A stretch of DNA of 64,000 nt from assembly GCF_024256425.1 (NCBI RefSeq), contig NC_071110.1, forward strand, positions 2,599,451 to 2,663,450, given 5' to 3'. The position numbers and the translations under genes were made by a program. The DNA is from Clarias gariepinus (Eukaryota). Below are positions 19,949-31,639 of the stretch, in pieces (the first letter of the stretch is position 1; every line of letters starts with the position of its first letter). The notes below the pieces were generated by a model. It was not told where the DNA came from, did no database searches, and worked only from the letters and a program-made list of their open reading frames with translations.

Positions 19949-20524
19949 CTGTTTTTCAGTCCTTTCCGTTTTAGTTGAAACAGTATCATGTCCTTTATGG
20001 TCGTCTATCGTACACAAGTAACAGATGAAGCTTTGGTCAGTACGACAGTAGATCTCAGTCAGTTTGTCATGCTGAGAGCAGATCTTCTCTTGAAGCTTTG
20101 CACAAGGTTCTATTAACTTGTGCTTTTTAAAAGCAGGAGACTGATAGTGAGGTTGAAGATGATCTTCACAATAGGAGGTCCTGCACACCAGACAGGAATT
20201 GGCAGCTTTGCGTTTTCTCCCGGTGCAGGAATCACACTCCACATCTCCAGGTCCAGCGTAACAGTGAGCCCTAGAAGCAGCTTCGAGTTTGGACTTCTTC
20301 TCCACCACTTCAGCCAGACTCCATAAAACAGGTCTTGAAGTGAAAGTCTCTCTATGCTTGGGGCAGCTGTAGACTCTCCTTCGATCCTGGCAATTCCCGA
20401 AGTCATTACTACACACCTTACCGAAATTGTGGCCTCGGGGAGTAGTCACTGGATCACTCAAAGGGTTCAGACACACTGCACAGCTGAACTGATCCTGATT
20501 TACTGAAATATTTGCCTCTGCCAT
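19949..20524 (-). CDS. finTRIM-like locus 1 RING + B-box exon with substituted zinc ligands (MAEANISVNQDQFSCAVCLNPLSDPVTTPRGHNFGKVC…VYSCPKHRETFTSRP…CDSCTGRKRKAANSCLVCRTSYCEDHL…).
   Basis: The finTRIM N-terminus, but PCGHxFC reads PRGHNFG and CPQCR reads CPKHR. The B-boxes (CDxC…CLVCxxSYCEDH; CSQHDK…YCRTDQSFICYLC) are intact. Donor AAACAG|gtcaga. Confidence 0.7.
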
Positions 20525-20565
20525 TTTCCTACACTCACACACACTTGTTCAGAAAGAAACATTTG

Positions 20566-20577
20566 AGTTTCGTTTTC
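20566..20577 (-). promoter_or_regulatory. ISRE (GAAAACGAAACT on the gene strand) ~45 bp 5' of the locus-1 ATG. The shared motif GTGTGGCTTTAAAAA is at 20629-20643.
   Basis: Exact match to the ISRE consensus GAAANNGAAACT. Repeated at the paralogs (see separate features). Confidence 0.6.
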
Positions 20578-21205
20578 TTTTGAAAAAGCTTCCTGGTTCT
20601 GTTTATGGTGTAAATTGACAGAGAGAGGTGTGGCTTTAAAAAGACAGGGAGTTCTGTGTTCTGGTAAATGCTCTTCTCTGTGATTTACAGATTTTTATTA
20701 ATTGAGTTCTGCATAGATTTTTTCATAAATATGACCTAAAACATATAGACAATATTATATGTATTCATTTGTTTATACATATATAATATCAGTTTATTTG
20801 AAATGTAATAATTCATTGCCCAATAAAAAAAAAAATCACTATCTGCATTTATCTAAGGAAATGGTTAAGAGGCTTCCACTGGATAATTACTGCAGTGATT
20901 AATATGGTTTAACTGGTATCAAGTTATTTAACGCTCACTGATGCAGTGAGGAGCTTCTCATTTCCCATGTCAGAAGACATACGCTGTGGTCGTGGCGAAA
21001 ACTATACTCTTTTTTTAAAAGGGTCAAATTATCATTGTGCATCAAACAAAGAAAAGAACTAAGGAGACTGCTAATACTTGAACTGGTTAAAAACCTTGAA
21101 GAACCTCGAAGAGGTAGAAAATGTGATTGAAAATCATCCCGAATAAGCATGTTGGGAGATCACTCAAACACATGGTTAAGTAAATAAATATGAATAAAAA
21201 TAAAT

Positions 21206-21258
<53 letters not shown>

Positions 21259-21339
21259 CATTGAGGCTCATATTTAATAGTGAAAATAATAAGCACACAG
21301 TGCGACAAGAACTCAAGAGATTTATCTTATGAAATAGCC

Positions 21340-21570
21340 TTAAGAAAACCGTGTAACGTTTTGGAAGGTCATGTGGTCTAATGAGTCCAGATTTACCCTG
21401 GAATTTAGCAGTAGAAATTATGTATCCAGCATGTCTAGTGCCTGCCAAACAAACCTGTTGGGACAGTGTTATGATCTATGGTTGCTTCTGTTTGTCAGGT
21501 CTAGGTTCAGCAATGTAATGTGCCTCTTCCATCAACAGTACATGATCTTCTCAAGTTTAACGTGACTCTG
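21340..21570 (+). mobile_element. Tc1-like transposase fragment (VMWSNESRFTLEF…).
   Basis: WSDESRF-like Tc1 motif. Duplicated at 32095-32300 inside the segmental duplication. Confidence 0.5.
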
Positions 21571-21811
21571 CATGGAAATAAATGTTGTGACATTGCATAG
21601 TCTTATGAAAAATAGTTTGTAATGGAAAATGCATGTCATAACCAAAACAAAAGACAGTCCAATGAAATATTAGAGTGTGTGCCCTTTTGTTTGGCCAGGT
21701 GTATGATAGTATTTAAAGAATTGAATGCTGATCATTTTTATAAAATAAACTAACAGTTAAGTGTAAGGAGCTCTACAAAACACAAAGCCAAAAAAGAAAA
21801 ATAAAGAAATT

Positions 21812-28470: not shown

Positions 28471-29081
28471 AAAAATGAATCAGATTTAGATGTAAAACAC
28501 AAACATGTTTAGACAAAGTGTTAGGGGGTGTTTTACTTACACTGCAGAAACTCCTCTCTGTTTTTTGGCTGTAATATCTGAAATGCTGCAACTGGGGAAA
28601 ATGATAGAGACAAAAATATGAAATTGAAACAGTTTAAAACCTTGTAAGCTCAGATGGACACATCAATTAGACGCCAACTTGGTGGATCAGTCTTCCAATT
28701 TTGAATTTAAGATATCACCTGCATTTCTATTTCAATTAAATGTAATATTTAGATTTATCATTTCTGTTGACTTTGTCTGGTAAATTTAGCTTGATGTAAT
28801 TTACAATGTTTATACTCTTAAAGACTGAGCAAAAATGGTTTGTGTGTTAAAACCCTACTGCTATAATTGGTTATTAAAAGTCACATGATGAGTTACATGA
28901 GCAAGTGGAGGAAGAGCCTGAAAAATGGAAGACATGTGTGATGTAATGTGCAAAATATTTAACAGCGAACAATTTTCATTTAAAGCCAGCCTGACATCTG
29001 AAGTATAATTGTTCATTTTTATTGGATGGATTTTATGGCGCTCTGTACTGTGATGCAGGACAGAAATGTTTGCTTCTTTAC

Positions 29082-29202
29082 CTTGTGGATGGATTATGTT
29101 AAATTCCTCCTCACATATTTCCCCGACTCGTTTTTTCAGATCTGAGAGAGATTTCTTCACTCCATCAAATGTGTGATGTAGATTGACAGTGTACAGTGAG
29201 TC
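29082..29202 (-). CDS. finTRIM-like locus 2 internal exon (DSLYTVNLHHTFDGVKKSLSDLKKRVGEICEEEFNIIHPQ).
   Basis: In frame, 121 nt; acceptor gtgag|GACTCAC, donor CACAAG|gtaaag. Confidence 0.6.
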
Positions 29203-29426
29203 CTCACATCCAGGAGAAACACAGAGAGACGGGAAACTCTACAGAGAGGAAACACATCATAGAGAAGGAGAAAAGTGTAGGAGAGGAACGAATGAATCTC
29301 AGACTGAATCAGACCAAAGACACACTTGTGATCTCAGACAGGAACATTTATTGTTGCTGTAATGAGCTTTTAGGAGGAAACTTTGTGAGGAACAGCGCCC
29401 TCTGTAGATCAGACAGTGAGTGTTAC

Positions 29427-29659
29427 CTGGAGGAAGTGGATGTCATCGTGTGTGTGTGAAAGCTGCTCCAGCTCAGTGACTCTCCTCTTAAGATCAGCAA
29501 TCTCCTGCTCCAGTTGCGTCAGGAGTCGTTCAGCTCGACTCAGTTCAGCTTTCTCCTGAGCTCTGATCAGCTCCGTCACCTCCGAGCGCTTTTTCTCCAT
29601 AAGGCTGATCAGCTCAGTAAAGATCCTCTCATTGTCGTCTACTGCTGCCTGTGAACGCA
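29427..29659 (-). CDS. finTRIM-like locus 2 coiled-coil exon (…AAVDDNERIFTELISLMEKKRSEVTELIRAQEKAELSRAERLLTQLEQEIADLKRRVTELEQLSHTHDDIHFLQ).
   Basis: Paralog of 18604-18837. Confidence 0.7.
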
Positions 29660-29785
29660 TCTGTCAACACACATGCAATCCATTAATCAATCTCTCTATA
29701 TTGTTCGTATATTGTGTTTGTGTATGTACGGTATGTTTCTGATTGGTCATGTGTGTTTAGGTTTCTCTCTCCATTCTGTCCTCAC

Positions 29786-29881
29786 CTTAATAGTGTCCAC
29801 AGTCTTTTTCAGCTCCTGCACCTTATTCTGCTTCTCCTGGATCCTCTGTTGGGATTTCGTCTGCTCCTGCTTTAGTTTATT
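29786..29881 (-). CDS. finTRIM-like locus 2 coiled-coil exon.
   Basis: Paralog of 18963-19058; AG/GT borders conserved. Confidence 0.65.
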
Positions 29882-31057
29882 CTGAGACCAAATAAATTAG
29901 ACTTAAATAAAATGTTTAATTAAAAAACAAACATATTTCCTTTAGGAGTAAAAAAAAATATATATATAAGGGGAATCCTGGCTGAGGTGGCTCTGAGCCC
30001 ACTGCAGTCGTTCCCTTAAACATTCATTGAGTGAAACGCCTAGGCCTTGAAGGCTGACAGATAACTTGTCGGTAACTTTAGGAAGAGAAACATCTGTTTG
30101 TGGAAACTATACACACAATCATTTACCAACACCACTTGCACAGTGCAGGAACTCTGCTAGGAGTTATTGCCATTTATTGTTATCCCCCCTACAGTCCTGA
30201 CCTCACGCCAGCCATTTTCACATGTTTGGGGACTTACAGGACTTCATAGAGGCCAGAATTTTAGATCTGAAGCAGATTATGACTCTGGCATACTGAGAAA
30301 TCTTTCTACCTTAATGGTATCCAAGTACTAGTGAAACACTGGGATAAGTGCATTAGTGTAGCAGGGGATTATATAGAGAGTTTTTATTGTCAGAACTGTG
30401 TCCTGTTATTCTGCACAATTAAAAGTCCTACTTTCGGGTTATTTGTTAGGTGCTAAACAATGTTTCCTAAACAAAATGAGCTTTATCATTACCAACAATC
30501 ATATCTTTAAAAATAATAATAACTTAAAAAGATACATACATGTATTTCAGACTGACCCGGCACTGAAATTTAATTCATTTTAGGATAAATATTCATTATG
30601 AAAAGTTGGGTAACCAGAGCTAGTCTGTGGTAAAAACAGTGTTTTGGTGTCCCTGTGCATCCAGTTAATGAGTAAAAACCGTACTGCATTTAAATATTTC
30701 AGCAATATTGACTGGGTTCAGATAAAGTTCTTACTTTTTACTTGTAAACCTTTAGCTTTATACAGAGCTATGAAATATCTGGTGTGTGTGTAAGCCCAAT
30801 TAACGGAAAAAAACCTGTTTCAAATGAAATAATTATTTAAACATTGACACTTTAACACCATCACGCAGCTTTAACATTGTGCACGGCTTTGTGCTCTGTT
30901 GTTTTGTTGTAAATTCAATCATAATGTTGTTGGGTGTTGATGTGTACAATGTGCTTGACCTTTTCGTAAAGAAGCACAGTAAATGCCAGTTATAACACCA
31001 ATTAAATTAACTCAACAGAAACTACGTTATCTATAGAATTATGTAGTCTTGTCTGAC

Positions 31058-31639
31058 CTGTTTTTCAGTCCTTTCCGCTTTAGTTGAAACAGTATCATGA
31101 CCTTTATGGTCGTCTATCGTACACAAGTAACAGATGAAGCTCTGGTCAGTACGACAGTAGATCTCAGTCAGTTTGTCATGCTGAGAGCAGATCTTCTCTT
31201 GAAGCTTTGCACAAGGTTCTATTAACTTGTGCTTTTTAAAAGCAGGAGACTGATAGTGAGGTTGAAGATGATCTTCACAATAGGAGGTCCTGCACACCAG
31301 ACAGGAATTGGCAGCTTTGCGTTTTCTTCCAGTGCAGGAATCACACTCCACATCTCCAGGTCCAGCGTAACAGTGAGCCCTAGAAGCAGCTTCGAGTTTA
31401 GACTTCTTCAGCTTTTCCACCACTTCAGCCAGCCTGCGTTGAACAGGTCTAGAAGTGAAAGTTTCTCTATGCTTGGGGCAGCTGTAGACTCTCCTTTGAT
31501 CCTTGCAATTCCCGAAGTAATTACTACACACCTTACCGAAATTGTGGCCACGGGGGGTAGTCACTGGATCCCTTAAAGGGTTCAGACACACTGCACAGCT
31601 GAACTGATCCTGATTTACTGAAATATTTGCCTTAGCCAT
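31058..31639 (-). CDS. finTRIM-like locus 2 RING + B-box exon with the same ligand substitutions as locus 1 (MAKANISVNQDQFSCAVCLNPLRDPVTTPRGHNFGKVCSNYFGNCKDQRRVYSCPKHRETF…).
   Basis: PRGHNFG and CPKHR are shared with locus 1. An ISRE is at 31681-31692 and GTGTGGCTTTAAAAA at 31743-31758. Confidence 0.7.

Follow-up and report, generated by a model that had tools for sequence, protein, structure and literature searches.

Here, we report two paralogous genes of the finTRIM (ftr)/TRIM25-like family, A and B, which carry the same degraded RING in otherwise complete coding sequences. Both lie in a 64,000-nt stretch of Clarias gariepinus (contig NC_071110.1, positions 2,599,451 to 2,663,450; hereafter the window), a piece of teleost (vertebrate) DNA in which four finTRIM-like loci and one fragment are arranged in tandem, head to tail on the minus strand. 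The exon 1 copies of the four loci (A, B, C and D) were located in the open reading frame (ORF) listing and by tblastn with homologues, and each is followed downstream by coiled-coil and B30.2 exons (Table 1). The interpretation that we favour, with moderate confidence, is that A and B represent a ligase-inactive sublineage kept by selection, in which the RING drifts near-neutrally and the rest of the protein remains under purifying selection. The simplest reading of the sequence would be a RING that lost its importance long ago in a gene still selected as a whole.

The exon 1 peptides of A and B contain FSCAVCLNPLSDPVTTPRGHNFGKVCSNDFGNCQDRRRVYSCPKHRETF and FSCAVCLNPLRDPVTTPRGHNFGKVCSNYFGNCKDQRRVYSCPKHRETF, respectively, both encoded on the minus strand. 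In both copies the RING reads C-x2-C…TTPRGHNFGKVC…SCPKHR, with the motif PRGHNFGKVC…CPKHR, whereas the counterpart in locus D reads TTPCGHNFCKKC…SCPQCR (PCGHNFCKKC…CPQCR). The RING peptides described in the first-pass annotation of this DNA were thus recovered in both genes, together with two intact B-boxes. Its assignment of the lost zinc ligands, which had placed the three replacements at ligands 3, 4 and 8, needs one correction. A phmmer search against the PDB aligned the region to the RING of human TRIM25 (5fer, 4cfg) and paired R30 with C30 (ligand 3), H32 with H32 (ligand 4), G35 with C35 (ligand 5), C38 with C38, C54 with C50 and H57 with C53 (ligand 8). Ligand 3 is indeed Arg and ligand 8 is His, but Gly sits at ligand 5 and not at ligand 4, where the His is retained. 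The replacements in A and B are therefore Cys to Arg at ligand 3, Cys to Gly at ligand 5 and Cys to His at ligand 8, so that, in terms of the cross-brace, site I lacks ligand 5 and site II lacks ligand 3 and has its ligand 8 changed to His. At the codon level, TGT became CGT (in B) or CGA (in A), GGT and CAT, and the Cys codons are kept in 10 of 10 comparison sequences. The change from TGT to CAT at ligand 8 requires two substitutions, via Arg or Tyr, and ends at a residue that can bind zinc; either chance or partial compensation may account for this.

The damage to the RING goes beyond the ligands. Taking a column as conserved when homologues (58 for the RING) agree in it to at least 90%, we found the same 10 of 31 conserved RING columns broken in A and in B, among them the invariant Ile39 (to Ser) and the invariant Trp43 of the central helix (to Gly). 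Both genes also have a three-residue deletion in the helix after the RING, which takes out an invariant Asn. Homologues, by comparison, break on average 0.9 and at most 4 of these 31 columns, and among 120 annotated homologues about six (about 5%) lack one ligand and none lacks three. Every RING model of Pfam stays below its gathering cut-off in A and B, while zf-B_box lies above it, and neither gene matches the C3HC4 signature (C-x2-C-x11-16-C-x-H-x2-C-x2-C-x7-74-C-x2-[C/D]). Exon 1 of A and B is 94% identical at the protein level, and all ten broken RING columns are common to both; to judge from the sequence, this sharing reflects descent and not coincidence. Because all ten changes are shared, the lesion predates the split of A and B.

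Apart from the RING, A and B are complete genes. Each consists of six exons, whose 1650-nt coding sequence (549 amino acids) is free of internal stops; the Kozak context is good, and every one of the five introns has GT..AG. The exon sizes (Table 1) fit the published ftr plan, in which the RING and B-box exon has 555–594 nt, the next four have 96, 234, about 154 and about 60 nt, and the B30.2 exon has about 545 nt (PMC2657112). B-box1, B-box2, the coiled coil and PRY/SPRY follow in canonical order, with all B-box ligands present, and the corresponding Pfam matches of full-length A and B (TRIM_CC 181/163 bits, PRY 68/73, SPRY 42/41, B-box 37.7) all exceed the gathering cut-offs. Both genes further keep a TATA-like box (TTTAAAGCCAC) and a consensus interferon-stimulated response element (ISRE; AAGAAAACGAAACT) 55 nt before the ATG, which align with those of locus D, of a D-like fragment in the window and of genes from A. 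melas and P. gigas.

Is the decay confined to the RING? In the B-boxes, A and B break none of 50 conserved columns, and the contrast with the RING is strong (Fisher p=2e-5). In the coiled coil, 1 of 47 conserved columns is broken in each copy (homologue mean 2.0), and in B30.2 5 of 88 (homologue mean 2.7, 90th percentile 5). In total, 6 of 185 conserved columns are broken outside the RING, which is the level of annotated homologues. Within the RING, the changes are spread over conserved and variable columns alike (10 of 31 versus 11 of 27), and the approximately 14 non-synonymous changes in the B-boxes all fall off the 50 conserved columns.

The substitution rates on the branch leading to A and B, measured against exon 1 sequences with an intact RING (eight, taken from six catfish loci), show the same division. 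The RING core, with about 22 non-synonymous changes, has a non-synonymous rate (dN) of 0.256 and a synonymous rate (dS) of 0.319, i.e. a ratio (omega) of 0.80 with a bootstrap interval of 0.28–2.9. For the B-boxes of the same branch, dN is 0.049, dS is 0.282 and omega is 0.17, with a bootstrap interval of 0.07–0.34 that excludes 1. Parsimony with four outgroups gave omega values of 0.60 for the RING versus 0.22 for the B-boxes, with a non-synonymous excess in the RING (p=2e-4). As the synonymous depth is the same in both partitions, the B-boxes were not recently pasted from an intact donor. Moreover, a neutrally evolving 1647-nt ORF would stay without a new stop with a probability of 0.03 at 0.05 substitutions per site and of 0.001 at 0.1, and the drift of the RING is about 0.3. 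The first-pass annotation had left open whether a RING-dead TRIM is under selection or the lineage is one of pseudogenes, and the evidence favours the former through the complete ORFs, the confinement of the decay to the RING and the omega of 0.80 versus 0.17. The outcome it had described for plain pseudogenes, dN/dS near 1 with accumulating stops, is not what we observed: there are no stops, frameshifts or broken splice sites in 2 × 1650 nt and ten junctions, and the B-boxes are constrained.

A direct comparison of A with B was only partly informative. Exon 1 has an omega of 0.17 (13.5 synonymous and 9.5 non-synonymous changes; Fisher p=4e-5), and the B-boxes differ by 4 synonymous and 0–1 non-synonymous changes, while exons 2–4 have an omega of 0.92. 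This pairwise ratio is not decisive and was dropped as the main test, since the unit shared by A and B is a mosaic. Homology is limited to approximately 2.7 kb, from about 350 bp upstream of the ATG, which includes the promoter, to just past exon 4, and is patchy, with identities of 88–100% in 100-column windows. The B-boxes and intron 3 reach 99–100%, the RING's 3' half and parts of exons 3 and 4 are at about 90%, and the sequence further upstream is at 72–78%. Expressed as divergence, intron 3 differs by 0.5%, and intron 1 and the upstream region by 10–20%. Exons 5 and 6 of A and B are not orthologous; those of B are 96% identical to their counterparts in C and only 81% to those of A, and the B30.2 domains of A and B are 68% identical. 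Modules have been shuffled by unequal crossing-over or conversion, and the RING-dead N-terminal block thus has two different B30.2 domains. The alignable mosaic segments are 27672–29009 with 38942–40287 (exons 5–6 of B with C, 96%) and 18157–18482 with 42411–42737 (exon 4 region of A with C, 92%). The first-pass claim of a lesion older than the duplication and retained through it holds in its first half; the retention carries little weight by itself, given two young mosaic copies between which sequence is probably exchanged.

The omega of 0.92 in exons 2–4 was considered as a sign of pseudogenisation and rejected: intact catfish genes give 0.8–1.4 across species (A. melas versus P. gigas, 1.08), and a value near 1 in these exons is a property of the family, not decay. 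For exons 2–4 of A, B and the catfish loci L001 and L002, an omega of about 1 (0.8–1.4) is combined with a very low dS (0.07–0.12), even between species. This combination is unusual, and concerted evolution or constraint at the nucleotide level are possible explanations.

Do other fish share the lesion? The closest proteins to exon 1 and to the B30.2 exon come from catfish (Ameiurus, Pangasianodon, Pangasius, Tachysurus and Hemibagrus; 72–75%), and the top exon 1 matches, at 72–74% identity, are catfish proteins named 'E3 ubiquitin/ISG15 ligase TRIM25-like' or 'finTRIM family member'. These matches, together with DNA similarity that extends into introns, place the cluster among catfish and not in the cyprinid setting assumed at first pass. 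No lesion-bearing orthologue was found among the protein database matches or in six catfish ftr loci (about 140 kb), in which all 8 of 8 exon 1 copies have canonical RING ligands. A protein search with the RING region alone gave five matches with at most 67% identity, all with a precomputed Pfam RING and all with canonical ligands, and a DNA pattern across the lesion had no matches in metagenome contigs. Structure prediction of the lesioned RING contributed little. With a 62-sequence alignment, AlphaFold2 returned a mean predicted local distance difference test score (pLDDT) of 38 for exon 1 of B, with low scores in the perfectly conserved B-boxes, too; for P0010, a control with an intact RING and the same alignment members, one of five models scored 74.6 and the others 45–49. 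We rejected the low score of B as an effect of the substitutions, since the control prediction is bistable at this alignment depth.

How could such a protein act? In the scheme that we propose, A and B would be recent, partly homogenised duplicates of one finTRIM/TRIM25-like sublineage, whose RING is presumably no longer a zinc-binding E3 ubiquitin ligase domain and drifts almost neutrally, and in which B-box1, B-box2, the coiled coil and PRY/SPRY would still be held by purifying selection. Judging from established TRIM biology, a RING that lacks ligands in both zinc sites should be unable to form the cross-brace or to recruit the ubiquitin-charged E2 enzyme (E2~Ub). Ligase-dead mutants are usually made by substituting single ligands, as in TRIM25 C50S/C53S. 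Both proteins would be made, probably on interferon stimulation, would form dimers, among themselves or with RING-competent neighbours, via the conserved coiled coil, and would assemble via the B-boxes and bind targets via the two different B30.2 heads. Having no E3 activity of their own, they may act as non-catalytic binders or as modulators that dilute RING–RING pairing in mixed assemblies, a role that Sardiello et al. suggested for RING-less TRIMs (PMC2533329). We further speculate, as a bolder picture that we consider doubtful, that the RING has turned into a drifting spacer and that exon shuffling couples a ligase-dead RBCC (RING, B-boxes, coiled coil) module to at least two B30.2 heads, yielding interferon-inducible decoys or dominant-negative partners that tune the RING-competent finTRIMs next door.

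Several observations weigh against a selected, ligase-inactive sublineage. The absence of lesion-bearing relatives is odd for a branch about 0.3 synonymous substitutions long, if the gene is functional and widespread, and exact-sequence look-ups of the exon 1 ORFs of A and B in public assemblies gave no record and yielded no transcript or protein evidence. The RING partition has about 27 synonymous sites, a small number, hence the wide interval of its omega, and the mosaic origin of A and B by gene conversion or unequal crossing-over confounds pairwise dN/dS. The violations in B30.2 lie at the 90th percentile of homologues, and, as additional oddities of gene A, RR is changed to WS, 6 nt are deleted, the exon 5 acceptor has shifted and a donor is weaker. 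Finally, the cluster is in birth-and-death turnover, with C, D and the RING fragment degenerate.

These points lend some weight to the view that A and B are young pseudogenes or in early decay, in which case the RING lesion would signal that the entire gene has lost its function, with the other domains looking intact through short time or refreshed by gene conversion from working paralogues. The decaying neighbours (C without exon 2 acceptor, exon 3 and ISRE; D without three B-box2 ligands and exon 3; a fragment with stops), the patchy identity of A and B as expected from conversion, the missing lesion-bearing orthologues in databases and sampled catfish clusters and the omega of 0.92 in exons 2–4 all fit such a history, and pseudogenes are common in ftr clusters (PMC2657112). 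It is a serious alternative, though rather unlikely in our assessment. The RING evolved near-neutrally over a dS of about 0.3, yet the B-boxes of the same branch kept an omega of 0.17 and all 50 conserved columns; the similar synonymous depth of both partitions speaks against a recent import of the B-boxes, both ORFs and all ten splice junctions are intact, and the B-box differences between A and B are nearly all synonymous. The ratio near 1 in exons 2–4, in turn, also occurs between intact genes of different species.

Two further explanations assign a function to the altered RING itself. The N-terminal domain may have been remodelled by positive selection into a zinc-poor interaction module, e.g. 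in escape from a viral antagonist or from autoubiquitination. This would agree with the bootstrap interval of the RING omega, which reaches 2.9, with the two-step change to a zinc-capable His at ligand 8 and with an omega of 0.22 for the RING plus linker of A versus B, which hints at renewed constraint, and positive selection near the RING has been reported for zebrafish ftr genes (PMC2657112) and young primate TRIMs (PMC3228819). We regard it as improbable, as the point estimate of 0.8 stays below 1 and the changes show no preference for conserved or variable columns; the constraint signal between A and B amounts to 18 substitutions and weakens to a p of roughly 0.02–0.05 after transition bias, as estimated from expected synonymous fractions. 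Very improbable, in our view, is a RING that is still an active E3 through non-canonical coordination or a U-box-like fold. Three of four ligands are kept per zinc site, with His at ligand 8, a new Cys45 is present, and the linchpin Arg that follows ligand 8 is retained, as is the Pro of CP-x-[C/H]; U-box domains illustrate that the RING fold can exist without zinc. Against this, all Pfam RING models are below their cut-offs, at E<=0.01 neither gene matches the U-box profile PF04564 (for locus D there is a weak match, 23 bits), the invariant Ile39, Trp43 and the Asn of the following helix are lost as well, and ligase-dead mutants are routinely made by single-ligand changes. Cys45 was considered as a substitute for ligand 5 and is unlikely on geometric grounds, since it would be separated from ligand 6 by roughly two turns of helix, more than a replacement of ligand 5 would allow.

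Table 1. Positions in the window of the features of genes A and B and of the loci used for comparison.
Feature	Position	Strand	Remarks
Gene A exon 1 (RING-like segment, B-box1, B-box2)	19949..20524	-	576 nt; ATG at 20524, donor GT after 19949
Gene A degenerate RING core, aa 15-58	20351..20482	-	Arg 20435-20437 (CGA), Gly 20420-20422 (GGT), His 20354-20356 (CAT); Ile39 to Ser, Trp43 to Gly
Gene A B-box1 and B-box2	19988..20236	-	B-box1 20120-20236, B-box2 19988-20080; all zinc ligands present
Gene A exon 2 (coiled coil)	18963..19058	-	96 nt
Gene A exon 3 (coiled coil)	18604..18837	-	234 nt
Gene A exon 4	18256..18415	-	160 nt
Gene A exon 5	17512..17565	-	54 nt; donor GTGGGT
Gene A exon 6 (PRY/SPRY = B30.2)	16887..17416	-	530 nt; to stop codon
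Gene A core promoter	20566..20640	-	ISRE GAAAACGAAACT (20566-20577), TATA-like TTTAAAGCCAC (20630-20640)
Gene B exon 1 (RING-like segment, B-box1, B-box2)	31058..31639	-	582 nt
Gene B degenerate RING core	31466..31597	-	Arg 31550-31552 (CGT), Gly 31535-31537, His 31469-31471
Gene B B-box1 and B-box2	31097..31345	-	B-box1 31229-31345, B-box2 31097-31189; intact
Gene B exon 2	29786..29881	-	96 nt
Gene B exon 3	29427..29660	-	234 nt
Gene B exon 4	29082..29238	-	157 nt
Gene B exon 5	28541..28591	-	51 nt
Gene B exon 6 (B30.2)	27746..28275	-	530 nt; DNA identity 96% to locus C B30.2 exon, only 81% to that of gene A
Gene B core promoter	31681..31755	-	ISRE 31681-31692, TATA-like box 31745-31755
D-like RING exon fragment	21829..21981	-	in-frame stops, dead remnant; 1.3 kb upstream of gene A
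Locus C exon 1 (comparison)	46366..46953	-	RING ligand 4 His to Arg; B-box2 lacks two ligands
Locus D ('locus 4') exon 1 (comparison)	62136..62708	-	RING intact, three B-box2 ligands lost

Loci C and D are structurally worse than A and B, and the Pfam B-box match is absent in both. Locus D (55968–62708), which the first-pass annotation had taken as the canonical locus, has an intact RING together with a degenerate B-box2 (C..H.......C.......N..C.....Q..N, with the changes C to N, H to Q and H to N), an exon 2 shortened to 78 nt and no exon 3. It mirrors A and B, with the RING kept and the B-box decayed. The RING of locus C (39020–46953) reads PCGRSFCKVC, and its change from His to Arg is also present in an annotated Ictalurus punctatus protein (P0078). 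Locus C further has an exon 2 acceptor changed from AG to AT, no exon 3 and no ISRE, and is probably a pseudogene.

The D-like fragment beside gene A extends, with its promoter elements, over 21829–22126 (ATG at 21981, ISRE at 22054–22065, TATA-like box at 22116–22126), and points to an insertion of the A unit into a D-type gene, or a recombination with one. An isolated exon-4-like piece (KNSSIFTFNHHLAFDGVRKSHTDLK) at 49637–49711, between loci C and D, is a remnant of another lost ftr copy. Just upstream of locus C lies a minisatellite (47397–48750) in which a 21-bp unit (AGTAGGTGAGATAGGGGTATT) occurs 65 times; its higher-order period is 457 bp. A Tc1/Sleeping-Beauty-like transposon at 33753–35366, whose transposase is split by a frameshift over two ORFs (HTH_Tnp_Tc3_2/HTH_SB, then DDE_3), has an 86% identical copy in locus L001 of Ameiurus melas. 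In addition, a minus-strand ORF of 247 amino acids at 11328–12071 strongly matches the integrase core domain PF24764 (282 bits) and probably belongs to a retroelement or GIN-like element.

The block from exon 3 through intron 3 to exon 4 is, intron included, 89–96% identical in DNA across the paralogues and the loci fetched from three catfish families, while exon 1 is only 82–86% identical. It spans 18157–18850 and 29015–29673 in the window, and 16449–17055 in L001, 7069–7712 in L003, 19693–20377 in L004 and 17474–18149 in L005. Reading through the exon 3 donor gives VTLTV followed by a stop, and P0004 and P0029, annotated as short isoforms, end in the same tail, which suggests a putative conserved intron-retention isoform without B30.2.

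If expressed, A and B would constitute a natural experiment, a class IV antiviral TRIM without E3 activity of its own. As RING-competent paralogues with near-identical coiled coils adjoin them, RING-independent restriction or dominant-negative regulation becomes testable in fish innate immunity. This case also shows how a domain-by-domain test of conservation can tell the death of one domain from that of the gene in birth-and-death immune clusters, where gene conversion confounds pairwise dN/dS.

The overall organisation of A and B is that of the teleost finTRIMs, with which they have in common the six-exon plan, the tandem head-to-tail cluster with pseudogenes and fragments, the divergent B30.2 and the ISRE promoter; they differ in the replacement of three of eight RING zinc ligands and of several invariant RING residues. 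The best match among solved structures is the human TRIM25 RING (PDB 5fer, 4cfg), with a residue-for-residue alignment over the RING and both B-boxes, but TRIM25, an active E3 that dimerises, has the full set of eight ligands, whereas A and B have no equivalents of C30, C35 and C53.

TRIMs without a RING are already known, as is the erosion of zinc motifs in young TRIM clusters. The 'incomplete' mammalian TRIM14, TRIM16, TRIM20/pyrin, TRIM29, TRIM44 and TRIM66 lack the RING (Sardiello et al. 2008, PMC2533329), and such proteins have been proposed to regulate orthodox TRIMs via hetero-interaction (PMC2533329). Like A and B, they keep the B-box and coiled coil, some of them also B30.2, without a functional RING; for A and B this likeness holds at the level of motifs, and the loss of activity would follow from them. 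Unlike A and B, they form old, conserved orthologue groups from which the RING segment is absent. In A and B the 44 RING-homologous codons are present, in frame and recognisable, and the two genes form a young local branch of an expanding immune cluster; they are not orthologous to any named RING-less TRIM, their best relatives being RING-bearing TRIM25-like/finTRIM proteins. Another parallel is the young primate TRIM cluster on chromosomes 2 and 11, where 1 of 20 open-frame copies has lost the RING signature and 2 have lost the B-box2 signature (Han et al. 2011, PMC3228819), and where many copies arose by segmental duplications (PMC3228819). It shows the same mix of RING-lost and B-box2-lost copies as A and B versus C and D here, in another TRIM subfamily and another host clade, and that paper is not about rate contrasts between domains. 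Compared with their annotated relatives, A and B are the more extreme case, with a clean domain-specific signature, though one that is not surprising to a specialist.

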